Shown here one piece after another: positions 6,437-63,165 of a DNA stretch of 64,000 bases (positions are counted from its first letter, which is position 1; every line of letters starts with the position of its first letter). Source of the DNA: Bispira polyomma. Taxonomy: Eukaryota. The notes beneath the pieces are model-generated. The model worked only from the letters and a program-made list of their open reading frames with translations. It was not told the origin of the DNA and ran no database searches. The translations under genes and the position numbers were made by a program. The stretch covers positions 26,350,001-26,414,000 of the forward strand of contig OZ287752.1 of NCBI GenBank assembly GCA_965649765.1, in the 5' to 3' direction.

Positions 6437-6594
6437 AGGGGCCTAGTGGTTAGTAAGCATTGCGCCTAACAATCACTGGTATCTCACCTCTGGGCGGCGT
6501 GAATTCGAATCCCGTCAATACCTATGTGGGAAAGGTGGTAGTTCCTTACTGTGGGCCGCTGGTTTCAGTGCAGAGCCTTGACCAACTGTATGCA
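6437..6594 (+). mobile_element. tRNA-derived SINE family 1, partial copy
   Basis: GGCCTAGTGGTTAG (A box), GTGAATTCGAATCCC (B box), TGTGGGAAAGGTGG core; 3' part missing. Confidence 0.85.
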
Positions 6595-19465: not shown

Positions 19466-19660
19466 AATGTTCCAGAGAGACACAGGACTGTATGTATAAA
19501 ATTGATTATGTATGTCAAATAATAAATGTTATATCATGCCTTATGAAAATTGTAATACATATTTAATGTCCTATATATTGTACATGAAATGGTACATATT
19601 GCAAAATAAATAACATATATTGAAAAAAAAATATTAGGTATGCCTTTTATATTATATGAA

Positions 19661-23033: not shown

Positions 23034-23265
23034 AGGCCGCACTAGTCTAGTGGTTAGCAGCACCTGCTTCACAATCAATGGCCTCTCACCAAAGCAGATT
23101 AAAATCCTGTTCCTTTCTTCATGTGGAAAAGTTTGTCAGGTACTTGCCTGTAGGCCCGTGGTTTACAGTGTGTTTCAGCACTGGTATTCTTGAACCGTTG
23201 TACCTGGCCATTGTGATATGACCTAAGCTATTAAAAGTGACAACCCAACTAAAACCCAACTAAAT
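23034..23265 (+). mobile_element. Degenerate tRNA-derived SINE, present in each array unit
   Basis: GGCCGCACTAGTCTAGTGGTTAGCAGC...CTTCACAATCAATGGCCTCTCACC head like family 1; GATATGACCTAAGCTATTAAAAGTG tail. Confidence 0.7.
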
Positions 23266-25316: not shown

Positions 25317-25342
25317 CTGTAAGGGAACACAAAACATGTATT

Positions 25343-25346
<4 letters not shown>

Positions 25347-25410
<64 letters not shown>
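25347..25410. repeat. (TA)32 microsatellite; (TA)25 at 28751, (TA)26 at 32141, interrupted at 35533
   Basis: Read directly; the length differences account for the unit-length differences. Confidence 0.97.
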
Positions 25411-25416
<6 letters not shown>

Positions 25417-25480
25417 GTTGATTTATATAAGGATACAGTTTTTATACTTTATTGGCAATGCCTAAAATGTACCTAGCAAA

Positions 25481-25800
25481 TTCCTATAGCTGACTCTGCT
25501 GGGAGTCAGCTCAGTCAAAACGAAAAATCCCGACACAACCAAAGCCGACTCCCCTTTATGACACACACCAATATATGTATGTCACACACCAATATATGTA
25601 TGTAACACACCAATATATGTATGTCACACACCTGCACAACAATCGAGCTTCCGCCCATTGTCTTCATCACAAAAGTACTAATGAAATTTAAATTTATAGA
25701 AAGCTCAATTTCTCAGCGACTGCTGGTCAGAGCCTATATCACTCTTGAAAGTTTAGAAAAGCCACTTTTACTACAAAACAGTATTACTTACTGCAATTGA
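25481..25800. mobile_element. Helentron-associated (HINE/DINE-like) non-autonomous element fragment, in each unit
   Basis: Terminal hairpin AGCTGACTC-tgctgg-GAGTCAGCT (25488-25511), then three ~21-22-bp repeats CACACACCAATATATGTATGT (25561-25632). Confidence 0.45.
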
Positions 25801-27793: not shown

Positions 27794-28720
27794 TTACGAC
27801 AGTTTATGTCCCATATATGACTCATAGACAATCTTGAATCGCTTTGTCACAAAGTCATAAAATTCATACTCTAGTTTTATAATGTCGTTATCCATCAGCA
27901 TTTGCCTGGCTGCTGCACTCATTTTGGGGGCTTTAAACCCTGACGTATGTCTGTACTTCTCGCTTTCTTTCAGGTACATGTGTGCATCTACTGCCCCTTT
28001 AAAGTAATGTGGCAACATGGTCTCTAGTACTTCTAGAAACTCTATGTACTTTGTCACATGACCCACCACAGCGAATCCCGTCAGCACGTTCTTGATGGCC
28101 AGGTTGAGGGCATGTCTTGTTGGCGTTTGACACAGGTAGTGTTGTCCACAGAAATGAGGGATGATGGTCCAGATAAACCTGACATCAGTACACTCAGGGT
28201 CAAAGGTGAGGACACACTCGCCAAAAGGCACATTGTGTCTTCTGTGGACATCTTCGTCGTCGGCATCTTTGAAAAAGTCTCCTACTATCTGCCCATGGTA
28301 GGTGATCTTGTTTTTGTTGTTAATTGCCCTGCGGTAGTAGTAATACGACTCCAGTCTGTCTATTGGATCTCGAATGAGGTTGATGTACACTGGATCCAGC
28401 TTAATGCCGTAGCTTGTGAAATTGATATAGTTCAGATGCTTACAGAAAACCCAGGGCTCTTTCATTTGAAGTAGTTTGCCTGCGGTGTATTTGATACTAT
28501 GTCTGTCCAGGTGATAATTTGCAGTGATATACGGTTGGGTGAAGCCCTGGGTTGTATAGAAGTTATTGGTCCGTGACACGTTATATATAACATAGCGAGT
28601 GGATTGGCTTCCACATTTAGGAACCATGTTGTAAAATATGTGTTTCACAGACGAGTTGTACTTGTGATCCACTTTGGAGATGTCCCACTCATTATCCTTG
28701 AATCTTAGATCTGAAGGAAT
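27794..28720 (-). CDS. 2-O-sulfotransferase-like catalytic exon, gene A copy 2
   Basis: Protein identical to copy 1. Confidence 0.85.
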   Translation of the reverse strand: MPSDLRFKDNEWDISKVDHKYNSSVKHIFYNMVPKCGSQSTRYVIYNVSRTNNFYTTQGFTQPYITANYHLDRHSIKYTAGKLLQMKEPWVFCKHLNYINFTSYGIKLDPVYINLIRDPIDRLESYYYYRRAINNKNKITYHGQIVGDFFKDADDEDVHRRHNVPFGECVLTFDPECTDVRFIWTIIPHFCGQHYLCQTPTRHALNLAIKNVLTGFAVVGHVTKYIEFLEVLETMLPHYFKGAVDAHMYLKESEKYRHTSGFKAPKMSAAARQMLMDNDIIKLEYEFYDFVTKRFKIVYESYMGHKLS

Positions 28721-28746
28721 CTGTAAGGGAACACAAAACATGTATT

Positions 28747-28806
<60 letters not shown>

Positions 28807-31183
28807 GTTGATTTATATAAGGATACAGTTTTTATACTTTATTGGCAATGCCTAAAATGTACCTAGCAAATTCCTATAGCTGACTCTGCTGGGAGTCAGC
28901 TCAGTCAAAACGAAAAATCCCGACACAACCAAAGCCGACTCCCCTTTATGACACACACCAATATATGTATGTCACACACCAATATATGTATGTAACACAC
29001 CAATATATGTATGTCACACACCTGCACAACAATCGAGCTTCCGCCCATTGTCTTCATCACAAAAGTACTAATGAAATTTAAATTTATAGAAAGCTCAATT
29101 TCTCAGCGACTGCTGGTCAGAGCCTATATCACTCTTGAAAGTTTAGAAAAGCCACTTTTACTACAAAACAGTATTACTTACTGCAATTGAATGGCTGGTG
29201 TTGTGAGAATATAGAAATTAGTTTTTCAACTGGTATCGTTAAAGGACATTTAAAAGTTATCACATTTTATTCATATTGATGAAGTTTGAGAAAAAATCAA
29301 AAGGTGTATTTGTAAATTTAAAGAAAGAACATATTATAATTTTATATTGAGGAGGTCAGATTGGCATTTATTTTAAGTGGGCAGTGGATAGTTCAGAGAT
29401 CTTATTGGCTGAAACATGGCCATGTGACAGTTAGTGAAAGATGATATAACCCTGTATTACAGTTTATTCTCGCCTCAGGAAGCTACCTTGCTGATAACTG
29501 TAAGTGTATCCTTATTGTGGTGCATATCTTTGTTTTGTTAAAATTGCGTACTACATACAACACAGCCTAATCTTGTAGCAAATGTTACTTGATTATAATG
29601 TGCAGGAGTTGATAGTTTAACATGATCACAGATGGATCCAGGATTCTAAAAAATCATTTTTGGGATTGCATCAAACACAAGTTTGACAACTAAAGAGTCT
29701 CTATACTGAGAATTCATATTTGAATGCAGTGCTGAAAGCTCTGCTACAAAGAATGGCTACAAATCAAAGCTATATACATTACACATAGAACACCAAATTA
29801 ATCATGCATCCTCTAAGGTGCTGATAGAGGCCGCACTAGTCTAGTGGTTAGCAGCACCTGCTTCACAATCAATGGCCTCTCACCAAAGCAGATTAAAATC
29901 CTGTTCCTTCCTTCATGTGGAAAAGTTTGTCAGGTACTTGCCTGTAGGCCCGTGGTTTACAGTGTGTTTCAGCACTGGTATTCTTGAACCGTTGTACCTG
30001 GCCATTGTGATATGACCTAAGCTATTAAAAGTGACAACCCAACTAAAACCCAACTAAATTTTAAGTTTCTGGTTCTAGTCCATTAACGGGAAACGTCGCT
30101 GTGGGAAAGAAACTTGATAGGGGGTTACAGGTGAGCATAGGTAATCTAGAAAAGGTAGGTTTCAATTGACTTCTAAAATGACATATCTTCTCATTAGGGA
30201 ACTCAGTGTGCCATACTACATCATTCTGGGGTATACTTTTGTAAGCATTCAATTTAATAGGGTTTTCAACTCTAAATTCAAATATGCAGTCAGTTTTTAC
30301 TTATCTTTACTTCAGTCAGATATAATGAAAGTTCCAATATTTGTTTGTTTGAGCTTGATTCTGAGTTGGAAATGTTGCCGCTGATGTCATTAAATATTAA
30401 GAAAATCAGAATCTATACAAAACTCATATTGGGACGAATAATAAAGTACAACTATGTATGCAAAACTCCTTTAATGCACGTTAAATTTTATTTTTTTAAA
30501 TTTTTTTTCCGTAAAGATAATATGACGAAAAGTTCCCCATTGTACTATATGACAGCACTTGCCACACCAATTTCTAATAAAATCTATAATTTTTTGAGGG
30601 AAGCCCAGAATTGAGTAGTGTGGATTACAACAGTGAAACTCCTCAAAAGTGATCAATACCTAAAATATTAAGACCTCAGACTTGATGAGCCTTGGTCTTT
30701 AAGCCTACACTTACATGTATAAGATATACATCTTCTGGCATCAACCGACATCAGCCAATTGTCTTTATCCCTATAGTTACAGTGTAAGCACCTCCATGTG
30801 TCAGATGAGATCAGATGTCGTCAGAGGCTTCACATATTTTTGGTCAGGGCAAATATGGTCGATTTTGGGGTGTTTTTGTGGAATATATAATTTGGCTGAT
30901 GTCATGGTAATGTAGGCTTACACTTTTAGGTGTTGTCCACTTTCATTGCAGTTTACGTGTATACTACTTTAATATGTCAAGCATAGAGCACTATACATGT
31001 ACGTTATATAACATCTGTATGATACCAGTTAATTATTTTAAATAGTTCTCGGATAGTTTCTTGGAACATTGTGAAAACATTTAAATCAGATGGCAGAATA
31101 ATAATTCAAATACAGCAAGGACTAAATAAACATTCCATATTTTGTGACTATAACTTTTAATAGTAATGTATATATATGTATAT

Positions 31184-32110
31184 TTACGACAGTTTATGTC
31201 CCATATATGACTCATAGACAATCTTGAATCGCTTTGTCACAAAGTCATAAAATTCATACTCTAGTTTTATAATGTCGTTATCCATCAGCATTTGCCTGGC
31301 TGCTGCACTCATTTTGGGGGCTTTAAACCCTGACGTATGTCTGTACTTCTCGCTTTCTTTCAGGTACATGTGTGCATCTACTGCCCCTTTAAAGTAATGT
31401 GGCAACATGGTCTCTAGTACTTCTAGAAACTCTATGTACTTTGTCACATGACCCACCACAGCGAATCCCGTCAGCACGTTCTTGATGGCCAGGTTGAGGG
31501 CATGTCTTGTTGGCGTTTGACACAGGTAGTGTTGTCCACAGAAATGAGGGATGATGGTCCAGATAAACCTGACATCAGTACACTCAGGGTCAAAGGTGAG
31601 GACACACTCGCCAAAAGGCACATTGTGTCTTCTGTGGACATCTTCGTCGTCGGCATCTTTGAAAAAGTCTCCTACTATCTGCCCATGGTAGGTGATCTTG
31701 TTTTTGTTGTTAATTGCCCTGCGGTAGTAGTAATACGACTCCAGTCTGTCTATTGGATCTCGAATGAGGTTGATGTACACTGGATCCAGCTTAATGCCGT
31801 AGCTTGTGAAATTGATATAGTTCAGATGCTTACAGAAAACCCAGGGCTCTTTCATTTGAAGTAGTTTGCCTGCGGTGTATTTGATACTATGTCTGTCCAG
31901 GTGATAATTTGCAGTGATATACGGTTGGGTGAAGCCCTGGGTTGTATAGAAGTTATTGGTCCGTGACACGTTATATATAACATAGCGAGTGGATTGGCTT
32001 CCATATTTAGGAACCATGTTGTAAAATATGTGTTTCACAGACGAGTTGTACTTGTGATCCACTTTGGAGATGTCCCACTCATTATCCTTGAATCTTAGAT
32101 CTGAAGGAAT
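31184..32110 (-). CDS. 2-O-sulfotransferase-like catalytic exon, gene A copy 3 (PKCGS to PKYGS)
   Basis: Identical to the other copies except C>T at 32004. Confidence 0.85.
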   Translation of the reverse strand: MPSDLRFKDNEWDISKVDHKYNSSVKHIFYNMVPKYGSQSTRYVIYNVSRTNNFYTTQGFTQPYITANYHLDRHSIKYTAGKLLQMKEPWVFCKHLNYINFTSYGIKLDPVYINLIRDPIDRLESYYYYRRAINNKNKITYHGQIVGDFFKDADDEDVHRRHNVPFGECVLTFDPECTDVRFIWTIIPHFCGQHYLCQTPTRHALNLAIKNVLTGFAVVGHVTKYIEFLEVLETMLPHYFKGAVDAHMYLKESEKYRHTSGFKAPKMSAAARQMLMDNDIIKLEYEFYDFVTKRFKIVYESYMGHKLS

Positions 32111-32136
32111 CTGTAAGGGAACACAAAACATGTATT

Positions 32137-32198
<62 letters not shown>

Positions 32199-34575
32199 GT
32201 TGATTTATATAAGGATACAGTTTTTATACTTTATTGGCAATGCCTAAAATGTACCTAGCAAATTCCTATAGCTGACTCTGCTGGGAGTCAGCTCAGTCAA
32301 AACGAAAAATCCCGACACAACCAAAGCCGACTCCCCTTTATGACACACACCAATATATGTATGTCACACACCAATATATGTATGTAACACACCAATATAT
32401 GTATGTCACACACCTGCACAACAATCGAGCTTCCGCCCATTGTCTTCATCACAAAAGTACTAATGAAATTTAAATTTATAGAAAGCTCAATTTCTCAGCG
32501 ACTGCTGGTCAGAGCCTATATCACTCTTGAAAGTTTAGAAAAGCCACTTTTACTACAAAACAGTATTACTTACTGCAATTGAATGGCTGGTGTTGTGAGA
32601 ATATAGAAATTAGTTTTTCAACTGGTATCGTTAAAGGACATTTAAAAGTTATCACATTTTATTCATATTGATGAAGTTTGAGAAAAAATCAAAAGGTGTA
32701 TTTGTAAATTTAAAGAAAGAACATATTATAATTTTATATTGAGGAGGTCAGATTGGCATTTATTTTAAGTGGGCAGTGGATAGTTCAGAGATCTTATTGG
32801 CTGAAACATGGCCATGTGACAGTTAGTGAAAGATGATATAACCCTGTATTACAGTTTATTCTCGCCTCAGGAAGCTACCTTGCTGATAACTGTAAGTGTA
32901 TCCTTATTGTGGTGCATATCTTTGTTTTGTTAAAATTGCGTACTACATACAACACAGCCTAATCTTGTAGCAAATGTTACTTGATTATAATGTGCAGGAG
33001 TTGATAGTTTAACATGATCACAGATGGATCCAGGATTCTAAAAAATCATTTTTGGGATTGCATCAAACACAAGTTTGACAACTAAAGAGTCTCTATACTG
33101 AGAATTCATATTTGAATGCAGTGCTGAAAGCTCTGCTACAAAGAATGGCTACAAATCAAAGCTATATACATTACACATAGAACACCAAATTAATCATGCA
33201 TCCTCTAAGGTGCTGATAGAGGCCGCACTAGTCTAGTGGTTAGCAGCACCTGCTTCACAATCAATGGCCTCTCACCAAAGCAGATTAAAATCCTGTTCCT
33301 TCCTTCATGTGGAAAAGTTTGTCAGGTACTTGCCTGTAGGCCCGTGGTTTACAGTGTGTTTCAGCACTGGTATTCTTGAACCGTTGTACCTGGCCATTGT
33401 GATATGACCTAAGCTATTAAAAGTGACAACCCAACTAAAACCCAACTAAATTTTAAGTTTCTGGTTCTAGTCCATTAACGGGAAACGTCGCTGTGGGAAA
33501 GAAACTTGATAGGGGGTTACAGGTGAGCATAGGTAATCTAGAAAAGGTAGGTTTCAATTGACTTCTAAAATGACATATCTTCTCATTAGGGAACTCAGTG
33601 TGCCATACTACACCATTCTGGGGTATACTTTTGTAAGCATTCAATTTAATAGGGTTTTCAACTCTAAATTCAAATATGCAGTCAGTTTTTACTTATCTTT
33701 ACTTCAGTCAGATATAATGAAAGTTCCAATATTTGTTTGTTTGAGCTTGATTCTGAGTTGGAAATGTTGCCGCTGATGTCATTAAATATTAAGAAAATCA
33801 GAATCTATACAAAACTCATATTGGGACGAATAATAAAGTACAACTATGTATGCAAAACTCCTTTAATGCACGTTAAATTTTATTTTTTTAAATTTTTTTT
33901 CCGTAAAGATAATATGACGAAAAGTTCCCCATTGTACTATATGACAGCACTTGCCACACCAATTTCTAATAAAATCTATAATTTTTTGAGGGAAGCCCAG
34001 AATTGAGTAGTGTGGATTACAACAGTGAAACTCCTCAAAAGTGATCAATACCTAAAATATTAAGACCTCAGACTTGATGAGCCTTGGTCTTTAAGCCTAC
34101 ACTTACATGTATAAGATATACATCTTCTGGCATCAACCGACATCAGCCAATTGTCTTTATCCCTATAGTTACAGTGTAAGCACCTCCATGTGTCAGATGA
34201 GATCAGATGTCGTCAGAGGCTTCACATATTTTTGGTCAGGGCAAATATGGTCGATTTTGGGGTGTTTTTGTGGAATATATAATTTGGCTGATGTCATGGT
34301 AATGTAGGCTTACACTTTTAGGTGTTGTCCACTTTCATTGCAGTTTACGTGTATACTACTTTAATATGTCAAGCATAGAGCACTATACATGTACGTTATA
34401 TAACATCTGTATGATACCAGTTAATTATTTTAAATAGTTCTCGGATAGTTTCTTGGAACATTGTGAAAACATTTAAATCAGATGGCAGAATAATAATTCA
34501 AATACAGCAAGGACTAAATAAACATTCCATATTTTGTGACTATAACTTTTAATAGTAATGTATATATATGTATAT

Positions 34576-35528
34576 TTACGACAGTTTATGTCCCATATAT
34601 GACTCATAGACAATCTTGAATCGCTTTGTCACAAAGTCATAAAATTCATACTCTAGTTTTATAATGTCGTTATCCATCAGCATTTGCCTGGCTGCTGCAC
34701 TCATTTTGGGGGCTTTAAACCCTGACGTATGTCTGTACTTCTCGCTTTCTTTCAGGTACATGTGTGCATCTACTGCCCCTTTAAAGTAATGTGGCAACAT
34801 GGTCTCTAGTACTTCTAGAAACTCTATGTACTTTGTCACATGACCCACCACAGCGAATCCCGTCAGCACGTTCTTGATGGCCAGGTTGAGGGCATGTCTT
34901 GTTGGCGTTTGACACAGGTAGTGTTGTCCACAGAAATGAGGGATGATGGTCCAGATAAACCTGACATCAGTACACTCAGGGTCAAAGGTGAGGACACACT
35001 CGCCAAAAGGCACATTGTGTCTTCTGTGGACATCTTCGTCGTCGGCATCTTTGAAAAAGTCTCCTACTATCTGCCCATGGTAGGTGATCTTGTTTTTGTT
35101 GTTAATTGCCCTGCGGTAGTAGTAATACGACTCCAGTCTGTCTATTGGATCTCGAATGAGGTTGATGTACACTGGATCCAGCTTAATGCCGTAGCTTGTG
35201 AAATTGATATAGTTCAGATGCTTACAGAAAACCCAGGGCTCTTTCATTTGAAGTAGTTTGCCTGCGGTGTATTTGATACTATGTCTGTCCAGGTGATAAT
35301 TTGCAGTGATATACGGTTGGGTGAAGCCCTGGGTTGTATAGAAGTTATTGGTCCGTGACACGTTATATATAACATAGCGAGTGGATTGGCTTCCACATTT
35401 AGGAACCATGTTGTAAAATATGTGTTTCACAGACGAGTTGTACTTGTGATCCACTTTGGAGATGTCCCACTCATTATCCTTGAATCTTAGATCTGAAGGA
35501 ATCTGTAAGGGAACACAAAACATGTATT

Positions 35529-35587
<59 letters not shown>

Positions 35588-36513
35588 ATATATATACACA
35601 GTTGATTTATATAAGGATACAGTTTTTATACTTTATTGGCAATGCCTAAAATGTACCTAGCAAATTCCTATAGCTGACTCTGCTGGGAGTCAGCTCAGTC
35701 AAAACGAAAAATCCCGACACAACCAAAGCCGACTCCCCTTTATGACACACACCAATATATGTATGTCACACACCAATATATGTATGTAACACACCAATAT
35801 ATGTATGTCACACACCTGCACAACAATCGAGCTTCCGCCCATTGTCTTCATCACAAAAGTACTAATGAAATTTAAATTTATAGAAAACTCAATTTCTCAG
35901 CGACTGCTGGTCAGAGCCTATATCACTCTTGAAAGTTTAGAAAAGCCACTTTTACTACAAAACAGTATTACTTACTGCAATTGAATGGCTGGTGTTGTGA
36001 GAATATAGAAATTAGTTTTTCAACTGGTATCGTTAAAGGACATTTAAAAGTTATCACATTTTATTCATATTGATGAAGTTTGAGAAAAAATCAAAAGGTG
36101 TATTTGTAAATTTAAAGAAAGAACATATTATAATTTTATATTGAGGAGGTCAGATTGGCATTTATTTTAAGTGGGCAGTGGATAGTTCAGAGATCTTATT
36201 GGCTGAAACATGGCCATGTGACAGTTAGTGAAAGATGATATAACCCTGTATTACAGTTTATTCTCGCCTCAGGAAGCTACCTTGCTGATAACTGTAAGTG
36301 TATCCTTATTGTGGTGCATATCTTTGTTTTGTTAAAATTGCGTACTACATACAACACAGCCTAATCTTGTAGCAAATGTTACTTGATTATAATGTGCAGG
36401 AGTTGATAGTTTAACATGATCACAGATGGATCCAGGATTCTAAAAAATCATTTTTGGGATTGCATCAAACACAAGTTTGACAACTAAAGAGTCTCTATAC
36501 TGAGAATCGACAC

Positions 36514-36544: not shown

Positions 36545-37406
36545 CTTTACAAAATCCTTGATCTGCTTATGATTATGGTGACACAGTATGACACTGTATA
36601 GTTGTATACCTTCAGAGTTCAGAGTGATTGCATATAACATATCTACTGACATTCCTAGTAACTAGGGCCCCTGTCTGTTGATCACAAGCTAGCCCACGTT
36701 TGGGTTTGGTTACAATCATCTCCTGGATTAGAAATCTTCGTATTTTGTGTTTATTTTTTGTGTGTTTATTTTTCCTATTAATGACAGCTGAGACAAATAG
36801 GCGCCAACTAGGGAGGTTTTTATTCATATTTATCTTTAATAAATTCATAATAATCCATAATGCTGCAAGAAAAAAGATCGGACTAAGAGTAGTCAACAAT
36901 AGTCATGTATTCTAACGAATTCACAAATTATAAGACAATTTAGGATTAGGTCACAACATGAAGAATACACGAGAATACTAAACGATGCTTTACAAATATT
37001 AGCTACTGATCCACCGAATGTCATGGTTACTGGTAATTACACCTGAATGTCCCAAATGAAAATGAAAGGCCTTGTGATGGAATGACGAATATCTACGACT
37101 ACTTACGAAAACACTAGAGTAATAAAATAAACCATGCTGAGCTGGTCCGGTCTCAAGCTTGCGAATACAACTGTCCATTATTTCTCAATCAAGTGATTGG
37201 CTACTTATATTCGTTTTCTGATGGTCATAGCATATTGGGCATGTATTGTTGTAAAATAATCAAAGATAACTACCACGTGTAGAGATAGAAATGCTTACCT
37301 CCCTGGATGTAACTGCAGCTTCATCTGTCTTCATATCAAACAAAACATAAAGAATTAAGGAGACGATCAACACAGATGATACACAAGTCCTAAAAGTTAA
37401 CTTCAT
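34576..37406 (-). CDS. Gene A: uronyl/heparan sulfate 2-O-sulfotransferase-like, 344 aa, two coding exons
   Basis: Exon 37406-37299 MKLTFRTCVSSVLIVSLILYVLFDMKTDEAAVTSRE (type II anchor, donor GTAAGC, phase 0) joined to catalytic exon 35502-34576. Confidence 0.9.
36421..36571. mobile_element. Small MITE with an internal C18(AC)n tract
   Basis: Left CACAGATGGATCCAGGATT, right AAAATCCTTGATCTGCTTATG; a related end CATAGGCGGATCCAGGGTTTTGTAAAA lies at ~43859. Confidence 0.55.
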
Positions 37407-38165: not shown

Positions 38166-38655
38166 AAATGGGGACACAAGTAAAGGTTATTTCGCTGTTG
38201 GAAATTTACTTCAGTTGACAAATTGGAACATAAGTATAGGTTATTTCTTAGTAGGGGGGGCCGCGGTGGCCTAGTGGTTAGCAAGCATTGCGCTTCACAA
38301 TCATTGGTCTCTCACCTCTGGGTGGCGTGAGCTCGAATCCCGTCGATGCCTATGTGGGAAAGGTGGTAGTTCCTTACTGTGGGCCGCTGGTTTCAGTGCG
38401 GAACCTTGATCAACTGTATGCAGTATTTCCTCCAGTGTTTCCAACTACCCGTCCCAATATAACCTAAACAGGTACTAGAGTGCACGTTAAATATCCAAAA
38501 TTAAAAAAAAAAAAAATTATTTCTTAGTAGGAGATTTACTTCAGTTGACAAATGGGGACAGAATTATAGGTTATTTCTCTGAAAGAGATTTACTTCACTT
38601 GACAAATCGGGAAACAAGTATAGGTTATTTCTCTGTAGGAGATTTACTTCAGTTG
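38166..38655. repeat. ~54-bp minisatellite (4 units) interrupted by a SINE
   Basis: Unit CAAATGGGGACACAAGTATAGGTTATTTCTCTGTAGGAGATTTACTTCAGTTGA, repeated imperfectly. Confidence 0.85.
38256..38516 (+). mobile_element. tRNA-derived SINE family 1, full length with A-tail
   Basis: 15-bp TSD TTATTTCTTAGTAGG at 38241-38255 and 38517-38531. Confidence 0.95.
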
Positions 38656-39725: not shown

Positions 39726-39946
39726 GAATTTGAATTTGAATTGGGATATTTAACGTCCTATCTATTTCCTGTTTAGGTTATATTGGGACGGACAGTTGGA
39801 AATGCTGGAGCAAACAGTGCATACAGTTGATCAAAATTCTGCACTGAAACCAACGGGAGTCGAACCCACGCAAGCTGATCACAGAGGTGAGAGACCAGTG
39901 ATTGTGAAGCGCAATGCTTGCTAACCACTAGGCCACCATGGCCCCC
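39726..39946 (-). mobile_element. SINE family 1, reverse orientation, internally deleted
   Basis: Reverse complement of family 1; TSD ACAAATACTG at 39715-39724 and 39947-39956. Confidence 0.9.
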
Positions 39947-40365: not shown

Positions 40366-42543
40366 TTATGACAGATTATGTCCTGTGTAGGCTTCATAAA
40401 CAATCTTGAACCTTTTTATAATAAAGTCATAGAATTCATACTCCAGCTTTATCATTTTGTTTCTCATCAGTGCTTCCCTAGTGTCGACACTTATCATTGA
40501 AGTATGGAATTGTACATCTTTGGTGTACTTTGGTCTACTTTTCTGAAGGTACCAGTGTGCTTCTATTGCCCCTTTGAAAAAATGTGGAAATAAAGTCTCC
40601 AGCACTTCTAGAAGCTCTATATACTTCTCTGTATACCCGACTACAGCGAATTCTGTCAGCACGTTCTTGATAGCCAGGTTGAGGGCATTCCTTGTTGGTG
40701 TCTGGCACAGGTAGTGTTGTCCACAGAAATGGGGGATGATGGTCCAGGTAAACCTGACATCGGTACACTCAGGGTCAAAGGTGAGGACACACTCGTCAAA
40801 TGTCATATTGCGTCTTCTTTTTGCGTCTTTGTCATCAGCATCTTTAAAGAAGTCACTTGCAACCTGTCCGTGGTAGTTGATAATCCCCTTGGTAATGTCA
40901 CCTTCCCTACGGAAGTAATAGTGGGCTTCCAGTCTCTCAATGGGATCCCTGACAATGTTGATGTACACCGGGTTGAGGTTAGGGCCATGGTTTGTGAAAT
41001 TAATGTAATTTAAGATTTTAGTAAATATCCAGGGTTCTTTTAGGCCACGTAAACCATAGGCAATATTTTGGATGCTGTTGATGCTTATATGATAGTTTGA
41101 TGTAATATACTTTTGGTCAAATGCCTTGGTTGTACTGAAGCCCTGTGTCTTTGACTGGTGCAACACGAGGAAAAGCATGGCTTTACTGCCACATCTCGGC
41201 ACCATGTTATAAAACAGCTGTCTTACAGAAGAGTTGTACTTAGCATCTACCTTGGAGATGTCCCACTCTGGCTCCTTCACCATGAGTTCTGGGGGAATCT
41301 GGAGGATATATACAAGATATAGGAACTCAAAAAAGCCTTCTCACACCCTTTAGTAAACTTATAGAGGAACCTGGAGGATCTATGCAATACATAGGAACTC
41401 TGTTAAATAAGTATTCAAAAAAGCCTTTCCACACCTTTAAGTAAACTGTCAATGTGGCCTAGTCGATAACACACTCACTTAACTACATTAAAGGACCTGG
41501 GTTTAATCCCAGACTAGGTTCAAACAGATACATAGTGGCTTGGATGGCCAATAACAAATGGTGGTGTCGTCTGTTAGTGTGTCCTATCCACAGTGGTAGC
41601 TTGAATAACCTTGGGCATGTTGATAAGTGGTCATCCTCAAGCCTCTGACTTTGGTTAGGGAAATGACAGTTACCTGTGATGGTTGGCTGTACTTAAGCAA
41701 CCAAGAAATGTTTATTAGAGTTTAGAATACCAGACAAAGGCAGACAAATATGCTGAGTATAAATTTGAATAGAATGCAATATGATATACACTTTATTGTT
41801 TCAGAATAATTTTACCTACCCGGGTGCACTAAAATTTATTGTTTAATAACAATATCTTTCATTGATGAGAAAAATGCATTAAATTGAGCAAATCTATGTT
41901 AATAGGAGACATGCTAGAGAATGGTCACGCTTAATAATTGAATATCACAGTTGAACCTTACCTCTGAATCAGTACATGTCTGTGTCTACTTCAGTCATTC
42001 CATAACTGCTCATTGTTAAGAAATGAGAAGTTGAGAGATATCTCGACACTGATGGCATAAATAATATTGAAATGATATTCTAGGATGTTCTGATGGAGCA
42101 CAGGGTTTTAAGTCATTAACAGCCAAATTGATAATCTCCTAACATGATTTTTATAAACTACTAGAACATCATCCGATTTTTCCCAGAATCTAGGCCAACA
42201 TTTGCATTATTGTGTCTGTACATGAATTGATTTTAGCAGGCAATAAACCCACTCATATCACATTGATATAGCTCCCAACAACAAACCTTATCCAGACCAT
42301 ATTCTAAATATGTTAATCAGTCACACACCATTGCTTACGCAAGAATGACAAACGATAATTATAATAACAGTAGAACGTGATAGGTTTCACTTTAAATACT
42401 TAAATATTTGTAAAGGGAAAAAAGAGATAAATACCTACCCTATTTAAGGTAAATAGGTTTTTGTTATCCTTGGTAAATAAAACATAACCAATAAACACAG
42501 TCGCCAATAAGATAAATGGAGCAGATTTTAACATTAATTTCAT
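40366..42543 (-). CDS. Gene B: 2-O-sulfotransferase-like, 345 aa, altered catalytic residues
   Basis: Anchor exon 42543-42439 MKLMLKSAPFILLATVFIGYVLFTKDNKNLFTLNR (donor GTAGGT) plus catalytic exon 41298-40366 (acceptor TCCTCCAG); frame open. Confidence 0.85.
41455..41770 (+). mobile_element. SINE family 3 in the gene B intron
   Basis: TGGCCTAGT...CCTGGGTTTAATCCC head; AATGGTGGT and GGGAAATGACAGTTAC core. Reverse copies at ~47340-47665 and ~54790-55095. Confidence 0.7.
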
Positions 42544-45237: not shown

Positions 45238-46734
45238 TTATAACAATTTGTGTCCAGTGGACGATTCATAAATAACCTTGAACCTCTTCCTAATGAAATC
45301 ATAGAATTCATACTCCAGCTTTATAGCATTAGTCTTCATTAGTACCTCCCTGACTTCTACACTGGTCTTTGAACCTTCGAATTCTCTCTTGTGGCGATAA
45401 CCTGGATTTTTATGGTCAAGATATGTGTGTGTTTCTACTGCACCTTTGAAGAACTGTGGCAACAACACTTCTGCTATTTCTTGAAATTGGACAAACTTCT
45501 CTACATGTCTCACTACAGCAAATTCTGTCAGCACATTCTTGATGGCCAGGTTGAGGGCATGTCTCGTAGGTGTTTGACACAGATAGTGTTGTCCACAGAA
45601 ATGGGGGATGATAGTCCAAATAAACCTGACATCACTACACTTAGGGTCAAAGTTAAGGACACACTCGTCAAATGTCATGTTGTGTCTTCTCTGAGCATCA
45701 GCTTTGTCGGAATCTTCAAAGAAGTCTTCCACAACCTTTTCCCAGTAGGTGATAATGTTCTCTGTTAAATTCATGGTCCTACGAAAGTATTAATGAGATT
45801 CTAATTTATCAATGGGATCTCTGACAATATTGATATAAACTGGGTCAAGGTTGTAGCCTTCTTCTGTGAAATTAATATAGTTTAAGTGTTTGGTAAACAG
45901 CCAGGGTTCATTGAGGCTCAGTAGACCACAAGCAGTGGTTCTGATGCTTTCTTTGCTGATATGATAATTAGCTATAATGTGCGTCTGTGTGAAGTATTTG
46001 CTTACGATGTAGTGATTGGCTTTCAACAGGCTATTGAGGAGGTGACGCATGGGCTTGCTTCCACATCTAGGCACCATGTTATAAAAGACCTGTTTTGTAG
46101 AAGAGACATTCCTCTTGTTAACCTTCAATAAATCCCATTGTGGAGCCATCAAAGTTTGAACAGATACCTTCAGGAAAGAAACAATACAAAAACAACATTT
46201 TTATGCTCATATGTATATTCTTTCATCTAAAAAATATGTGATACCATTTTATTTTGCTAATACCGAGACAATCTACTGCAGAGTTGCTGAAAATGCAAAC
46301 CTTAAGCTACCTACCTAACAATAGCAGAATCTAATAGCTTAACAGAGAACTATTAAAATAGCCATATAAAAAAATTTGTACACTGGAAGCAATTTATATT
46401 TAAAAGCAATATATTTACCTTGTTTTGTGTACACGGATCATCCTTATCAAAAACACGAAAAGCAACAGACAAAATTATCAAAGATAACCCAACAACAAAC
46501 ATTATCCAAGCCATATTCTAAATATGTCAAGAAGTATCACACCATTGCTTACACAAGAATGACAAACGATAATTATAATAACATTAGAATGTGTTAGGTT
46601 GCACTCTAAATACTTAAATATTTGTGCGGGGCAAATGTTATAAATATGTTTTTGTTATCCTTGGTAAAGAGAACATAAACAATAAACACAGTTGCCAATA
46701 AGATAAAGGGAACATATTTTCCAATTAATTTCAT
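45238..46734 (-). pseudogene. Gene C: 2-O-sulfotransferase-like pseudogene
   Basis: Catalytic exon 46167-45238 has TAT>TAA at 45790-45792 (ESH*YF vs ESHYYL). B-type anchor exon (ATG 46734) lacks its donor. Hybrid anchor exon 46514-46419 is intact. Confidence 0.88.
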
Positions 46735-48750: not shown

Positions 48751-51245
48751 ATGCCCTTTCTCTTTAGAATCCACAAACTTCAAGAAATTTTGAAACTACA
48801 AATCACAACTCTGCACTTCAGCATAAGGCTGCTATTACTCAATACTTGAATAAGGAAAAGGACTGTGGGGCAATGTTAGGCCCTGTCACTGAATTCTTAG
48901 ATTAGGATTATTTCCACTGCTCACCTCTGCTAACCAGGCCTAAGTACATTGATAAACGTTGAGTGATTTTGAATTTATCTTATCCTAGAGGAAATTCGGT
49001 AAATGACAATGTAGATAAAGAACAATTTGATGGAACAGCCTACCTGATCATATTCGCCTGGCTCAAACTTTCTCCTCTTTCAGGAGTAAGCTGAAGGCCT
49101 ATCTTTTTGAACAGGCTTTTCCACCTTAGCCGTCGCAACCATTTACGGTAGTCTCCCTGGTTACGACTTCCATCCGCCCACTATTTTTGATTTTCGATTA
49201 ACGTTTTGGGTTTGTTGCGCCTTAGAATTTGTTGTACAAAGATTAAGTGTTATAAAAGTACGACTAGATTAGATTAGATTAGATTAGATGGTTTACAATT
49301 TAGACTTAAATTTCCAACCATAGATAACATAGTTGAACAAATTCGAAATACAGTAGAACCGAAAATATCAAACTTGACGTGGCCCGCTCCTTTAGAAACC
49401 TCAGGGTCGACCTAGCTGATGCAATGAAGTTAGGTATTTGTTTTAAAGGTGTAAAATACGTAGATCCAGCGGTCGCATTCGGCTGGGTACATGGCTCGGC
49501 GGCCTTTCAGCGGTACTCCGACATGGTAGCACACTACATGGAAAAGAAAAGGTATAAAATATTCTGTTACATCGACGATTACATTGGCAAAGCCACTTCC
49601 ACTGTAGCAGATACTGCTTTCAATGAATTATATAAATTGGTCACTGACCTGGGTTTGCCTCTTAATCCGGATAAGGTAATCAAACCAAATTTTACAATCA
49701 CTTGTTTAGGGATTGACATTGACAAAGAAATTATTAGTATTACCCAAGAAAAGATTAAGGAAACTTAGCAACTTTGTCTAGACATGTTAAACAAACTGTG
49801 GATTTCTCACACAAAAGTCCAATCGGTCTTAGGAAAATTGCTCTATATACACAAATGTGGTAAACCTGCTAGGATGTTTGTCAACCTGTTGCTTAGGGCT
49901 TAGATGCCTACTTAACAGGATTAGGGGGTATTTACAAGAATCAGGTTTATGCTACTCCTTCTATAATATATACGGAAAAGAACTTACCACAGTAAGCACT
50001 TAGGGTCTGGGGTAAGCAGTGGAGACACAGGAAAATAACTGTTAAGTGCGACAATATGGCTGTCGTACTGGTAGTGAGGTCAGACAAAACCAAAGATGAA
50101 TTCTTTGTCTAGCACTTTGTCTACGCAATATTTGGCTTATTTCTTCAATTTTCAATATCGCTATTGAGATACAACATATAAAAGGTAAAGAGAATGTAAT
50201 TGCAGACTTGTTTAGAATATTTTCAGAAGAACCTCCCAAGGGAGAACAAGTCAATATTATCAATGAAAATTGTATTTGGAGAACTATACCAATAGCGTTT
50301 CTTAACTTAGATATTAATATATAATTTCAGGTGCCACTCAAGTGCCACAAGCTTTCACCAGCTCAGCATGGCAAAGGATAAACCACTCACTTCGACCACA
50401 GACTAGCATGACTTATAACAACCAATTCAAGACATTTATTTCCTTCAACTGTTATGCTGGCATTGACCAGATCTCCACACATTCACTAGTGGCTTTCTTA
50501 GAATACCTAGTTCAAACTGGGGCTCCACCCCTTAGCATCAATAATTACTTGTCTGGCATAAAACACATCGCCAAAAAATTATAGTGGGATCTGAACATTT
50601 TGAAAATAATACTATTGCCATGTTAACAAGAAGCTTGTGACATCTCCAAGGCTTGTGACATCTTGGATGATCCTCCACTTTATAGGGATATTTTTTGCTT
50701 GCCTTTTTTGCCTTTTTAAGGATGTCCAATATTGCCCCCCCCCCCCTCCATTCAAGGGCCAAATTTGATCACACTAGGAATTTCCTAAAGAAAGATATAA
50801 CATTTGGCTACCCAGGGGCTCATATCATCTGGAAATGGGCAGAAAATTTACAGATTAGATCTCAATTTCATGTTATTCAAATCCCTTGACTAACAAACAC
50901 TGTTCTCTGCCCAGTTACAGCATTACAAAAGCTACTTCACACTAGGCCACTCCCTGACCACTATCCACTTTTTGCTGGGCTTACCCAACCACACCATGCT
51001 ATTGTAGACTCACACGTTAGAATAGCCCTTGCCAAGGTTTGGCTTGGGCTTTTAAAAATCTCATCTATTTTTAAACCTGTCTTTTGACATTTTACCTGAT
51101 ATTGTATATAGACTTTTGCACTAACATGTATAGTAATAATAAAGATACCTCAAACCATAAACAACTGTGTTGCTTTATCAACTTACATCTAACGTAACTT
51201 TGAAACTTACACACTGGCTTTAACAAGGACAACTGGACTCCATCT
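48751..51245 (+). mobile_element. Second degenerate DIRS retrotransposon (RT, RNase H, YR)
   Basis: SPLLTRPK, VILNLSYP, FGWVHGS, YIDD, CLGI, KCDN, ENVIADL, FAFLRMSN, LCPVTAL. Host similarity to the paralogous unit stops at GCATTGAT (48750). Confidence 0.9.
49034..49286 (+). mobile_element. L2 family 2 3' fragment nested in the DIRS RT
   Basis: (ATTAG)n tail; flanking GATGG repeat; removal restores EQFDGLQFRLKFPTID. Confidence 0.92.
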
Positions 51246-51291: not shown

Positions 51292-53505
51292 TTATGACAA
51301 TTTACGTCCAGTGGATGATTCATAAATAACCTTGAACCCCTTCCTGATGAAGTCAAAGAATTCATACTCGAGTTTTATAGCATTATTCTTCATTAGTACC
51401 TCCCTGGCTTCTACACTGGTCTTTGGACCTTTGAATTCTCTCTTGTGGCGATAACCTGGATTTTTGTGGTCAAGATATGTGTGTGTTTGTACTGCACTTT
51501 TGAAGAACTGTGGCAACAACACTTCTGCTACTTCCAGAAACTGGACAAACTTTTCTACATGTCCCACTACAGCAAATTCTGTCAGCACGTTCTTGATGGC
51601 CAGGTTGAGGGCATGTCTCGTGGGTGTTTGACACAGATAGTGTTGTCCACAGAAATGTGGGATGATGGTCCAGATAAACCTGACATCAGTACACTCAGGG
51701 TCAAAGGTCAGAACACACTCGTCAAATGTCATGTTGTGTCTTCTCTGGGCATCTGCTTTGTCTGCATCTTTGAAGAAGTCTGCCACAACCTTTCCCCAGT
51801 AGGTGATAATGTTCTCTGTTAAATTCACGGTCCTACGCAAGTAATAATGAGATTCTAATTTATCAATGGGATCTCTGACAATATTGACGTAAACTGGGTC
51901 AAGGTTGTAGCCTTCTTTTGTGAAATTAATATAGTTTAAATGTTTGGTAAACAGCCAGGGTTCCTTTAGGCTCAGTAGACCGTGAGCGGTAGTTCTTATG
52001 CTTTTTTTGCTGATATGATAATTAGCTATAATGTACGTCTCGGTGAAGTCTTTGCTTACGGTGTAGTGATTGGCTTTCGACAGGTTATTGAGGAGGAGAC
52101 GCATGGACTTGCTTCCACATCTAGGCACCATGTTATAAAAGACCTGTTTTGCAGAAGAGACATTCTTCTTGTTAACCTTCAATAAATCCCATTGTGGAGC
52201 CATCAAAGTTTGAACAGATACCTTTTGGAAAAAAACCAATAAAATATCAAATGTTTATGCTCATATGTACATTCTTTTATCTAAAATAATATGTGACACT
52301 ATCTTATTTTGCTTATACAATGTACTGAGAAAACCTACTCCAGAGTTGCTGAAAAATGCAAACCTTAAGTTACATACCTAACAATAGCAGAATATTATAG
52401 CTTAACAGAGAACTATTATAACAGCCATATAAAGCCTAAAAAATGTGTACACTGGAAGCAATTTATTTATAAAGCAATATGTTTACCTCCTTTTGTGTAC
52501 ATGGATCATCCTTATCAAACGCAAGAAAAGCAACAGACAAAATTACCAAAGATAACCCAACAACAATCTAATCTAATCTAATCTAGTCGTACATTTATAG
52601 CGCTTAATCTTTGTACAACAAATTCTAAGGCGCAACAAACCCAAAACGTTAATCGCAAATCAAAAATAGTGGGCGGATGGAAGTCGTAACCAGGGAGACT
52701 ACCGTAAATGGTTGCGACGGCTAAGGTGGAAAAGCTTGTTCAAAAAGATAAGCCTTCAGCTTACTCCTGAAGAGGAGAAAGTTTGAGCCAGGCGAACATG
52801 ATCAGGTAGGCTGTTCCAAATGAGGGGGCCATCATGAGCTAGGCAGTGATTGAACTGAACTTTGGATTTGTGGATGCGAGGGTCGAAAGTGGGAATGTTA
52901 AGGTATAATTTATCAGGTTTACTGCGCCTTGTCCTGACTGAGCATGTATATTTGGATAGATGGGGGCTAAAATAAGTGGGTAATCCAGAATTTAGAAATT
53001 TATATATTATTGTTGCTGTTTTGAAAGCAACACGATATTTTATTGGGAGCCAGTGCAGTGACTTGAGTACAGGAGTAATGTGGGAAAATTTAGATGTTTT
53101 GGTCACAATACGTGCCAATGAGTGTTGGATATTCTGAAGGCGTCTGAGATCACTACGAGATAAGGAACGAAACAGAGAGTTGCAGTAATCAAGCCTGCTG
53201 CTGACCAAAGCATTGGCAACAGTGATTGCAGTGGATTTGGAAAGATAGCATTGTCCAAACCATATTATAAATATGTTTAGAAGTCACACACCCTTGCTTA
53301 CACAAGAATGACAAACGATAATTATAATAACATTAGAACCTGTTGAGTTTCACTTAAATACTTAAATATTTGTAAAGGGGAACAAGAGATAAATACTCAC
53401 CTTATTTGATGTAAATATGTTTTTGTTATCCTTAGTAAAGAAAACATAAACAATAAACACAGTTGCCAATAAGATAAAGGGAACATATTTTCCAATTAAT
53501 TTCAT
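51292..53505 (-). CDS. Gene D: chimeric 2-O-sulfotransferase-like, 344 aa
   Basis: B-type anchor exon 53505-53401 MKLIGKYVPFILLATVFIVYVFFTKDNKNIFTSNK (donor GTGAGT) plus E-type catalytic exon 52221-51292; frame open. Confidence 0.85.
52566..53240 (-). mobile_element. L2 family 2, 5'-truncated, in the gene D intron
   Basis: SRLDYCNSL...HITPVLKSLHWLPI; (ATTAG)n tail. Confidence 0.95.
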
Positions 53506-55434: not shown

Positions 55435-57885
55435 ATCTAATCTAATCTAATCTAGTCGTACATTTATAGCGTTTAATCTTTGTACAACAAATTCTAAGGC
55501 GCAACAAACCCAAAACGTTAATCGCAAATCAAAAATAGTGGGCGGATGGAAGTCGTAACCAGGGAGACTACCGTAAATGGTTGCAACGGCTAAGGTGGAA
55601 AAGCCCGTTCAAAAAGATAGGCCTTCAGATTACTCCTGAAAGAGGAGAAAGTTTGAACCAGGCGAACATGATCAGGTAGGCTGTTCCAAATGAGGGGGCC
55701 ATCATGAGCTAGGCAGTGATTGAACTGAACTTTGGATTTGTGGATGCGAGGGTTGAAAGTGGGAATGTTAAGGTATAATTTATCAGGGTTACTGCGCCTT
55801 GTCCTGACTGAGCATGTATATTTGGATAGATAGGGGCTAAAATAAGTGGGTAATCCAGAATTTAGAAATATATATATTATTGTTGCTGTTTTGCTGTTTT
55901 GAAAGCAACACGATATTTTATTGGGAGCCAGTGCAGTGACTTGAGTACAGGAGTAATGTGGGAAAATTTAGATGTTTTGGTCACAATACGTGCCAATGAG
56001 TGTTGGATATTCTGAAGGCGTATGAGATCACTACGAGATAAGGAACGGAACAGAGAGTTGCAGTAATCAAGCCTGTTGCTGACCAAAGCATTGGCAACAG
56101 TGATTGCAGTGGATTTGTAATGTAAATGTAAAACCGTCATGGATTCTGGTAATTTTATCAGTGAAAAAAGTACTAAAAATGTTTGCCAGTGATTTGCTAT
56201 TGGAATTTTCGGGTAGTATAGTCTGTTTTTTACGGTGGAGGGTGTTATTTAGTTTTTGCCAAAGTTTCTTCGGGTCACCCTCGCTTTGTGATATCATGTT
56301 AGCATAGTAGGCACGTTTTGAGTCATTTATAGTGTTGTTGCACCGGGTGATCCATTGGCGTAGTCTAGATCTATTTGTAGTAGTTTTGTTTCGGCGCCAT
56401 GTTCGTTCGGCTTGTCTGCGCAGCATCTTCATTTCACAATAATTACTGGTGATCCACTCAGGTGCAGGCTTCTTCAATGTCTTTGATTTACATGGCGCAT
56501 GGCGTTCTATAAGAGACTGCAGGTCAGTGCAGTACTGTGTGAAAAGGTCAGTGGCATTATCAGCAGGAGACTTGATGAAGGCCGTATCTGCCAACTCTCG
56601 TCTAAGGTCAGACATATTGATTTTTTGAAATTGCCGAAAAGTGATTTGTGTGACATCAAAAGATGGTGGGGAGGTAGCATCAATTTCACAGGATATTGAA
56701 AAATGATCACTGATGCAACCAATGTTTTTTATGTTTCTGATACCATTGAAATCAGTCGGAGTTAGCAAGCAGTCTAGTGTATGCCCATGAATATGGGTAG
56801 GGAAGTTTATGTGTTGGGTAAGATTGCAAGATTCCAAAACTGTGGAAAACTGATTACTATTTCCAGATGCGGTGTCTATGTGAATATTGAAATCCCCACA
56901 GAATACAGTAGGAGAGGGTAACGAGCAAGTAAACCCAATAAAAGACATGAATTCTTCGAAAAATGTAGTGAGATTTGAGCCAGGAGGCCGATAAACTGTT
57001 GCAAAATTTAAACACTGCTTTTTCCAGTGAGCAGAGACAAGGATGAGTTCGAAAGATGTAAAACTTGGTGTAGCAACTAATCGACATTCATAGTTTTTCT
57101 TAATAAAAAATCCCACCCCCCCCACCCTGTTTACCTACACGAGGGGTATGGAATAGCTGAAAGTCAGCTGGGGTAAGTTCAGAGAGGAATGATGGAGTAT
57201 CAGAACTCCTAATGTGTGTTTCTGTGATGCCGAAAATATCTATGGAGGATGAGTCGATCAAATCGGCTATGACAGGGCCTTTATTCCGCAACGAGCGGGC
57301 ATTTCCAAATCCGAACTGATTTGGGCCAGGGTTACTCGCAATATCACCTGCCAGTAGGATAGTAATGAGTTTGAATGTTTTAGCCTTTGGTAGGTAATTG
57401 ACTGGGCAGAATTTAGATCGAAAATAACAGTGTGTATGAAGGGACCAGAAGTGTGGAACAGGATTGCAAGACAAATTAATGTCTTCCAGGTGGTACTGCA
57501 TTGACAATGTATCAGATAGTTTTAAGTTGTTGCGGTAACAGAACGTAAGGAATGACAGGTACAAGATGGCAGCCCTAATGGCAAACATATTGTAAGGGGA
57601 GGAGTGAAAAAACAATATTGAACAAAAGTAAAAGTGTAAAAAGAAAAAGCAATTCGGAGCAAAACAAGGAATAAAATATTGCGTGAGGATACAAAAGGGC
57701 CAAGCGCTAAAAGTAAACGTGATGGTACAAAAAAAGGGGTACCAAGCACAAAAAACAGAAAACAATATATAGTGGTAATAGTCGATAATAGGGGATAGTT
57801 TTCAGTATAACCCCAAATTAAAAAAATAAGAGATGTTGTACAAAGACTAAGCATAAAAATAATCACACAAGTTTTAATCAATTGA
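55435..57885 (-). mobile_element. L2 family 2 element with 5' region, 2A-like motif and APE endonuclease; RT deleted
   Basis: LLAGDIASNPGP, NARSL, ITETH, GGGVG, YRPP, GDFN, THIHGHTLD, SDH; then DKITRIHDGF is fused at ~56130 to the C-terminal NRLDYCNSL; (ATTAG)n tail. Confidence 0.93.
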
Positions 57886-61790: not shown

Positions 61791-63165
61791 TTATGACAAT
61801 TTGCGTTCAGTGGATGATTCATAAATAACCTTAAACCTCTTCCTGATAAAGTCATAGAATTCATACTCCAGCTTTATTGCATTATTCTTCATCAGTACCT
61901 CCTTGGCTTCTACACTTGTCTTTGGACCATCGAATTCTCTCTTGTGGCGATAAGCTGGAATTTTATGGTCAAGATATTTGTCCATTTCTACTGCACCTTT
62001 GAAGAACTGTGGCAACAACACTTCTGCTACTTCTAGAAACTGGACAAACTTTTCTACATGTCCCACTACAGCGAAATCCGTCAGCACATTCTTGATGGCC
62101 AGGTTGAGGGCATGTCTTGTTGGCGTTTGACACAGGTAGTGTTGTCCACAGAAATGTGGGATGATGGTCCAGATAAACCTGACATCAGTACACTCAGGGT
62201 CAAAGGTGAGGACACACTCGTCAAATGTCATGTTGTGTCTTCTCTGGGCATCTGCTTTGTCTGCATCTTTGAAGAAGTCTGCCACAACCTTTCCCCAATA
62301 GGTGATAATGTTCTCCGATAAATTTGCGGTCCTACGCAAGTAATAATGAGATTCTAATTTATCAATGGGATCTCTGACAATATTGATGTAAACTGGGTCA
62401 AGGTTGTAGCCTTCTTTTGTGAAATTAATATAGTTCAAGTGTTTGGTAAACAGCCAGGGTTCATTAAGGCTAAGTAGACCATGAGCAGTGGTTCTGATGC
62501 TTTCTTTGCTGATATGATAATTGGCTATAATGTACGTCTCGGTGAAATCTTTGCTTACGGTGTAGCGATTAACTTGCGACAGGCTATTGAGGAGGTAACG
62601 CATGGGCTTGCTTCCACATCTAGGCACCATGTTATAAAAGACCTGTTTTGCAGAAGAGACATTCCTCTTGTTAACCATCAATAAATCCCATTGTGGACCC
62701 ATCGTAAATTGAGCAGATTCCTTCAAAAAACAAACAATAAAAGAATAAAATTTTATGCTCATATGTACATTCTTTGATGTACAATACGCATCACCAAAAA
62801 TATAAAATTTCAAAAGGGACCAATTTATTTTTAGCTCTAATAAATGGCTACAAGGCTGCACATTCTGAACTATAATCAGTTGACGTCATTTAATTTTACT
62901 AATACCGATGCAGTTTTATTAAGTTGCTGGCAATGCAAACCTTGAGTTACATACTTAACAATAACAGAATCTAATAGCTTAATAGAGAACTGTGGAAACT
63001 GATATAGTAAGCCTTGTAGAATTTGTACACTAGAAGGAATTTATATACAAAAGCAAATATATTTACCTCTTTTTGTGTACTTGGATCATCCTTATCAAAG
63101 ACAAGAAAAGCAACAGACAAAATTATCAGAAGAAATAATAGGAACGATTTAAACCTGAACTTCAT
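61791..63165 (-). CDS. Gene E: 2-O-sulfotransferase-like, 342 aa
   Basis: Anchor exon 63165-63067 MKFRFKSFLLFLLIILSVAFLVFDKDDPSTQKE (donor GTAAAT) plus catalytic exon 62720-61791 (acceptor TTTTTTGAAG). Confidence 0.9.

Follow-up and report, generated by a model that had tools for sequence, protein, structure and literature searches.

A probable B-anchor/E-enzyme chimera in a sulfotransferase cluster and the probably unused anchor-like frame at its duplication seam

Introduction

Sdic of Drosophila melanogaster is a chimeric gene whose promoter and transcripts have been demonstrated, as has its protein, which carries a new N-terminus, according to the portion of PMC3395120 drawn on here. The locus described below resembles Sdic, as far as that portion goes, in being a chimera of two adjacent parents that are both intact on either side, in the presence of later tandem copies with retroelement insertions, and in having intron DNA of one parent at the fusion. 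It differs in that the parents of Sdic are described there as unrelated genes, whereas the parents here are paralogues, and in that the outcome here was likely an exon swap, the new frame showing no sign of use. Joining of exons of adjacent genes after duplication is given as the main route of domain gain in animals in the part of PMC2926785 considered. One of the copies studied here (D), in which the anchor exon of one gene (B) is combined with the catalytic exon of another (E), fits this route. Unlike the cases covered in that part of PMC2926785, the domain architecture of D is unchanged because the swapped module is a paralogous signal-anchor, and just the promoter and the anchor were reassorted. 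The architecture of the chimeric duplicate is thus of a kind already known, such as Sdic, and no description of the cluster or of a seam-formed anchor was found among the papers listed by searches of open-licence full text.

Results

The sulfotransferase cluster

The window, a 64-kb stretch of DNA (64,000 nucleotides), contained a minus-strand array of five two-exon sulfotransferase genes, designated A to E (Table 1). Each consisted of a signal-anchor exon of 33-36 codons and a single catalytic exon of ~930 nt, and every anchor donor and every catalytic acceptor was in phase 0. Pfam Sulfotransfer_2 was matched by all four of the catalytic exons tested, and the catalytic exon of D aligned with the HS2ST chains of PDB 3F5F and 4NDZ (E 6.5e-25, residues 27-299). 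The spliceosomal introns and LINE remnants of the window point to animal DNA, and by its sequence the cluster is HS2ST/UST-like. The position of the catalytic His142 of HS2ST was kept in A, C, D and E and absent in B, and the Lys83 position was occupied by a basic residue. In contrast to HS2ST, Arg80 was replaced by Met, Thr84 by Cys and His140 by Thr (Cys in A), Arg189 was not conserved, and the genes had one catalytic exon. As Arg80 and Arg189 were not kept, the cluster was not filed as HS2ST in spite of the likeness. Kinship with UST/pipe, relatives of HS2ST, is presumed. The best identifiable relatives outside the cluster were only 29-43% identical (among the best 150 of 1074 matches with E <=0.001).

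In the catalytic exon of B, Ile was found at the His142 position and Ala at the Ser172 position. The His was also missing from the outside partner of B, the protein P0003, so that B may represent a paralogue that is non-catalytic or altered and has been conserved as such. An element of 17-18 nt that begins TTGTCAATA was located at 37668, 42649, 46924, 53688 and 63402 (minus strand), 106-262 nt 5' of the anchor ATG in all five genes. The 9-mer TTGTCAATA had no other minus-strand match in the window, and the element is a candidate promoter element.

Gene conversion was apparent within the catalytic exon, in a tract at ~62234-62100 of E, 40809-40675 of B and the corresponding part of A. Within the tract, pairs of A, B and E differed at the third position in 1-6 of 30 codons, vs 11-22 elsewhere; the A-E value (1/30) was below those of C-E and D-E, and the tree of the segment lost the A/B/E orthologue pairings. 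The catalytic exon of A was present four times within 22913-36507, in 3.4-kb units with 99.5-99.9% identity, and a single anchor exon (37406-37299) was found for the four copies. One of them (32110-31184) had a Cys to Tyr change in the PAPS-binding loop. This array represents either a recent copy-number change or an assembly artefact.

The remainder of the window contained exons of an MFS_1 transporter gene at 14866-17366 (-), which we take to be monocarboxylate-transporter-like, and broken retroelement remnants at 266-2937, 10429-12119 and 49337-49765, with RVT_1 matches at 11029-12042 and 49337-49765. The frame at 1396-2418 had no Pfam match and is presumably DIRS-like from its look. A dispersed SINE-like repeat of ~250 bp was also found, the copies of which were 72-98% identical (Table 1).

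Table 1. Positions of the features discussed in the text, numbered within the window
Feature	Positions	Strand	Remarks
A anchor exon	37299..37406	-	paralogous control
B anchor exon	42439..42543	-	parent sequence for the B-type exons in C and D
B intron-1 segment	42274..42300	-	likely source of hybrid codons 1-9
B intron continuation	42189..42273	-	weak in-register likeness to E-type tail + donor; possible decayed exon
B catalytic exon	40366..41298	-	
C B-type anchor exon remnant	46606..46734	-	23-bp deletion, donor gone; 42-aa frame, then stop
C hybrid frame	46419..46514	-	32 codons, GTAAAT donor after 46419
C catalytic exon	45238..46167	-	E-derived; in-frame TAA 45792-45790
D B-type anchor exon	53401..53505	-	intact, GTGAGT donor; likely real exon 1 of D
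D hybrid frame, 5' piece (MVWTM)	53249..53263	-	
L2-like LINE fragment, 5'-truncated, in D intron 1	~52566..53248	-	
D hybrid frame, 3' piece	52487..52564	-	GTAAAC donor
D catalytic exon	51292..52221	-	open, Sulfotransfer_2, HS2ST-like
E anchor exon	63067..63165	-	source of the 3' two-thirds of the hybrid
E catalytic exon	61791..62720	-	parent of the catalytic exons of C and D
SINE-like repeat copies	6440-6594, 8714-8967, 16457-16596, 19217-19468, 38256-38505, 39735-39946		

Mosaic structure of C and D

C and D were mosaics, B-like 5' of a seam and E-like 3' of it, and the parents B and E persisted on either side. The B-like stretch was composed of the upstream region, the B-type anchor exon and ~165 bp of intron, and the E-like part ran from the middle of the E anchor exon onward. 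The spacers B-C, C-D and D-E were collinear paralogues. Such a mosaic, together with these spacers, would be expected if a tandem duplication had been followed by another duplication. The catalytic exons showed dS values of 0.17 (C-D), 0.22 (C-E), 0.20 (D-E) and 0.86 (B-E). A homologous-protein search gave 4 matches among 441 candidates, three of which were close (57-65% identity). These three outside proteins were catalytic-exon-only ORFs having no anchor; one grouped with A, another with B and the third with C/D/E, suggesting a three-gene ancestor to which C and D were later additions.

The seam and the hybrid frame

A sequence-only reading of the locus had described a new membrane anchor at the junction, composed of B intron DNA and the E anchor, with reciprocal loss of two anchors in C and D. 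The structural part of this description was confirmed. The hybrid frame of C translated as MAWIMFVVGLSLIILSVAFRVFDKDDPCTQNK and was followed by GTAAAT; its codons 1-9 matched the B intron-1 segment at 24/27 nt, which in B reads MVWIRFVVGSYINVI and then a stop, and codons 12-32 matched the E anchor exon at 56/63 nt. The seam in C was located between 46488 (B-derived) and ~46481 (E-derived), and no microhomology was found there by eye. The complementary lesions were also present: C lacked the donor of its B-type exon owing to a 23-bp deletion relative to D, and D retained that exon with its donor, while the hybrid of D was interrupted after MVWTM by the L2-like fragment. The donor of the D hybrid likewise exists, but it follows base 52487 (-) and not 52488 as had been given.

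The hybrid showed a Kyte-Doolittle average (KD19, the only scale applied) of 2.51 over residues 1-19, a run of signal-anchor length near the N-terminus, and the B-intron version of it gave 2.59. When seams were simulated by joining the E tail to 44,846 sampled non-coding positions, 21% of them supplied an ATG in frame no more than 30 codons away; the outcome was KD19 of at least 1.6 in 12%, and the value of the B-intron version in 1.8%. The simulation indicated that anchor-like frames are common at such seams and that one this hydrophobic is moderately uncommon; since they arise at about 1/8 of random seams with the E tail, the intactness of the frame alone is no proof of exonisation.

The sequence-only reading went further and regarded the intron DNA as recruited into a working anchor, so that the ancestor would have had two alternative anchors, the hybrid being retained in C and the B-type exon in D. 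In this model a stop codon in C, described below, would have to be an assembly error, a polymorphism or a recent change. Several features of the hybrid speak for it besides the formally complementary lesions and a hydrophobicity equalled by just 1.8% of random seams. The ATG, which had a favourable context (A at -3, G at +4), the frame and the GT donor were all preserved, with 0 small indels vs ~1.5 expected from the 10 C-D indels per ~600 non-coding nt counted by eye. Arg5, the sole charged residue among the nine codons of B, was replaced by Met in C as well as in D. A conserved acceptor-like block also preceded the hybrid, a 30-nt stretch without a single difference between B (42338), C (46552) and D (53301) (p=0.026, post hoc). 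The block ends TAAG / GTAAGC, a possible acceptor end or cryptic donor.

The N-terminus of the hybrid differed from those of the native anchors. All five native anchors had a six-residue N-tail with 2-3 Lys/Arg, and the hybrid had 0; in the A, B, B-type and E anchors the basic tail was followed by 17-18 uncharged residues, while the hybrid opened directly with 19. According to the part of PMC8421267 considered, the basic tails of Golgi type II signal-anchors bind GOLPH3 for Golgi retention. The A, B, B-type and E anchors are like the anchors described there in having a short basic tail, which is missing from the hybrid. If made, the hybrid would be expected from this comparison to interact poorly with GOLPH3, and it might act as a cleavable signal. 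Family relatives were collected as 153 proteins, the best 150 of 1074 matches (E <=0.001) plus the three close ones. Among them, 43 of the 46 with a detectable anchor had at least one Lys/Arg in the tail, and the other 3 had none. No N-terminus convincingly like the cluster anchors was found among the 153; the best match, a hydrophobic one to E, had an E-value of 0.006, and none of the N-termini matched the hybrid. Six ATGs were present between the shared upstream element and the hybrid ATG of C, one of which was the B-type ATG with a good context and a 42-codon frame. As 2-7 ATGs also precede the native anchors within this interval, the positions of the transcription starts are uncertain. The missing basic tail and the six preceding ATGs argue against the two-anchor model.

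Divergence between the two copies

The hybrid frame differed between C and D at 9/93 nt, 7 of the changes being nonsynonymous, and the B-type anchor exon at 2/93 nt, when compared with 74/601 nt of aligned non-coding DNA. The B-type exon was distinct from non-coding DNA (Fisher p=0.002), and the hybrid was indistinguishable from it (p=0.61); no purifying selection on the hybrid frame was detected in this C-D comparison, in which the counts are small and the power is low. The nonsynonymous differences, 1/74 in the B-type exon and 7/73 in the hybrid, gave Fisher p=0.03, although the all-site comparison reached only p=0.058, and the seven nonsynonymous changes of the hybrid exceeded the catalytic-exon rate at only p ~0.085. 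On the C branch, four amino-acid changes had occurred in the hybrid, including Leu to Arg where the hydrophobic run ends, against one in the B-type exon prior to the deletion of its donor.

These results did not support the functional part of the sequence-only reading. No constraint pointing to ancestral use of both exons was seen on the hybrid in the C-D comparison; in C as in D it had changed at the pace of non-coding DNA, mostly by nonsynonymous substitution. The claim that each copy kept a different anchor was not supported either, the B-type exon supposedly dropped by C having stayed almost identical to that of D.

The value of 2/93 need not mean selection on the B-type exon of C, since gene conversion occurs in the cluster and one of ten C-D catalytic-exon windows of 93 nt likewise had just 2 mismatches. 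Conversion could explain the similarity of the two B-type exons, yet it would rescue neither the hybrid nor the stop in C. It would also permit a history in which C was lost as a gene shortly after C and D had separated and received its B-type sequence recently from D, with the hybrid a passenger all the same. This history gains from the conversion evident among A, B and E in the catalytic exon, and from the eight nonsynonymous site differences between the B and C/D anchors, because of which the B-type exon cannot always have been tightly constrained. However, the near-identity of C and D coincided with the coding exon, the flanks differing at 4/50 (the 50 nt upstream) and 16/120 (intron 1a), and the catalytic branch of C rejected neutrality (p=0.03). 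An early death of C masked by conversion was thus considered unlikely.

State of copies C and D

The catalytic exon of C contained an in-frame TAA, where D and E have TAT. The stop is codon 126 of 309 and removes 183 of the 309 catalytic residues. It falls at what we take to be the Tyr174 position of HS2ST, directly after the equivalent of Ser172-Tyr174. The numbering was derived by way of the residues given in PMC6081452. This codon had been overlooked in the sequence-only reading, and because of it neither anchor lets C make the enzyme in this assembly. Read-through was considered and set aside, as the codon is TAA and C carries further radical changes. Indeed, otherwise-invariant columns (in comparison with the other seven sequences) were changed 8 times in C and 3 times each in D and E. 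The branch dN/dS of C was 0.51 (CI 0.26-1.05), not significantly higher than those of D and E (0.26 and 0.35), and the rejection of neutrality noted above indicated that the branch still bears some past purifying selection. The deleted donor, the TAA and the relaxed substitutions suggest that C is probably a pseudogene.

An open chimeric frame joined through canonical splice sites was not found in C. In D, the B-type anchor exon and the catalytic exon (53505-53401 joined to 52221-51292) formed an open frame in phase 0 with GT-AG borders. D is therefore best read as a B-anchor/E-enzyme chimera, and it would presumably encode a Golgi type II sulfotransferase with E-like catalysis under B-like control. 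Subfunctionalisation takes both duplicates to be intact genes, and C carried the TAA in this assembly. With the stop and the radical changes in C added to the neutral divergence of the hybrid, the two-anchor model was regarded as quite unlikely.

The L2-like fragment in the intron of D differed from a sibling copy by 15 mismatches over 686 alignment columns, and the insertion is therefore young. The label L2 is our assumption from the TAGAT tail and the endonuclease match of the sibling copy. No clear target-site duplication was seen by eye at the insert. The divergence of the insert from sibling copies was ~2-4%, and that of C from D 12-17%. As the insertion came late, the hybrid of D was whole for most of its history, yet it drifted. 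Three young L2-like copies with 96-97% identity were present in the window (55435-57800, 52566-53248 and 49031-49285). The long one (55435-57800) apparently lacked the RT region, and its RT break coincided to within ~8 nt with the 5' end of the copy in the D intron, for which we have no explanation.

Origin of the B-derived segment

Whether the B segment is intron DNA or a decayed ancestral exon was examined by anchored alignments, which were weakly positive for an exon, and by profile searches, which were negative. The tests were chosen post hoc, and neutral DNA at the B-E distance is nearly unalignable. If the segment were a decayed E-type anchor exon, the seam would be a crossover of homologous exons and no intron DNA would have been recruited. 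When the 85 nt of B 3' of the seam were aligned in register with the tail and donor of C, D and E, the score was matched by 14-21 of 2000 shuffles and attained by 51-68 of 2000 random non-coding windows, a weak likeness (nominal p ~0.01-0.03), while true anchors in the same test gave 0-12/2000. In a same-frame peptide test, the score was attained by 22/3000 shuffles for D, 231/3000 for C and 169/3000 for E. A decayed exon would also account for an ATG placed near the E spacing (32 vs 33 codons) and for the hydrophobic codons. Against this origin, local alignments for exon homology were non-significant (573, 152 and 719 of 1000 shuffles), and a profile of the E-type tail had no match at the B segment, its top three non-self matches being true paralogous anchors (the B-type exons of D and C, and A). 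Comparison of the E upstream region with intron 1a of B, C and D was mostly null, apart from one local test (25/1000). The nine codons of B agreed with the N-terminal codons of E at only 9/27 nt by hand count and lacked an M-K-x3-K/R start. A homology test between the intron end of B and those of C, D and E was null, and an NCBIfam search gave nothing useful. An exon ancestry for the segment is accordingly doubtful; an intron origin of hybrid codons 1-9 is likely, although not secure. The decayed-exon alternative bears on the origin of the hybrid and is compatible with its being unused.

Discussion

The observations are probably best explained by a duplication from which a B-anchor/E-enzyme chimera arose, with half of the E anchor exon stranded in its intron as part of a hybrid frame that is not used. 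The ancestral cluster would have contained three genes, E, B and A, each with a short type II signal-anchor exon and a catalytic exon. A tandem duplication with breakpoints inside the E anchor exon and ~165 bp into B intron 1 would have placed the B upstream region and a B-type anchor exon, spliced to the E catalytic exon, in one chimeric gene, and the cut-off tail and donor of the E anchor exon would have come to lie within its new intron. After a second duplication of the chimera, C and D would both have produced protein from the B-type anchor. The hybrid would then be the stranded E tail together with chance upstream intron DNA, an unused intronic passenger. D would remain such a chimera, in which a young L2-like element was inserted harmlessly into a dead segment, and C would have used the B-type anchor before decaying to a pseudogene. 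The apparent reciprocal loss would thus come down to a lesion in a gene already decaying and an insertion into dead intron DNA. While the mosaic of homologies, the collinearity of the spacers, the lesions and the pattern of divergence were observed, we infer from them this order of events, the choice of the spliced exon and a hybrid that was never translated. The hybrid is taken as an unused by-product rather than a new exon, chiefly on the ground that C, which alone would need it, is a broken gene.

The reverse seems distinctly improbable, namely that the seam was a working first exon with which C directed its sulfotransferase elsewhere in the cell or out of it, up to the appearance of a stop that is recent or still polymorphic. 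In that case the nine intron codons would have replaced the basic tail of E, giving a tail-less anchor or a cleavable signal, and C would have entered the exon through the conserved upstream acceptor or from a start site of its own. If true, new targeting information would have been born in a single step at a duplication breakpoint, and use of the hybrid, if shown, would provide a small and testable example of how a targeting signal can originate in this way. On the best reading, the locus is a clean, ordinary chimeric duplicate, in which D puts the E enzyme under the promoter and anchor of B.
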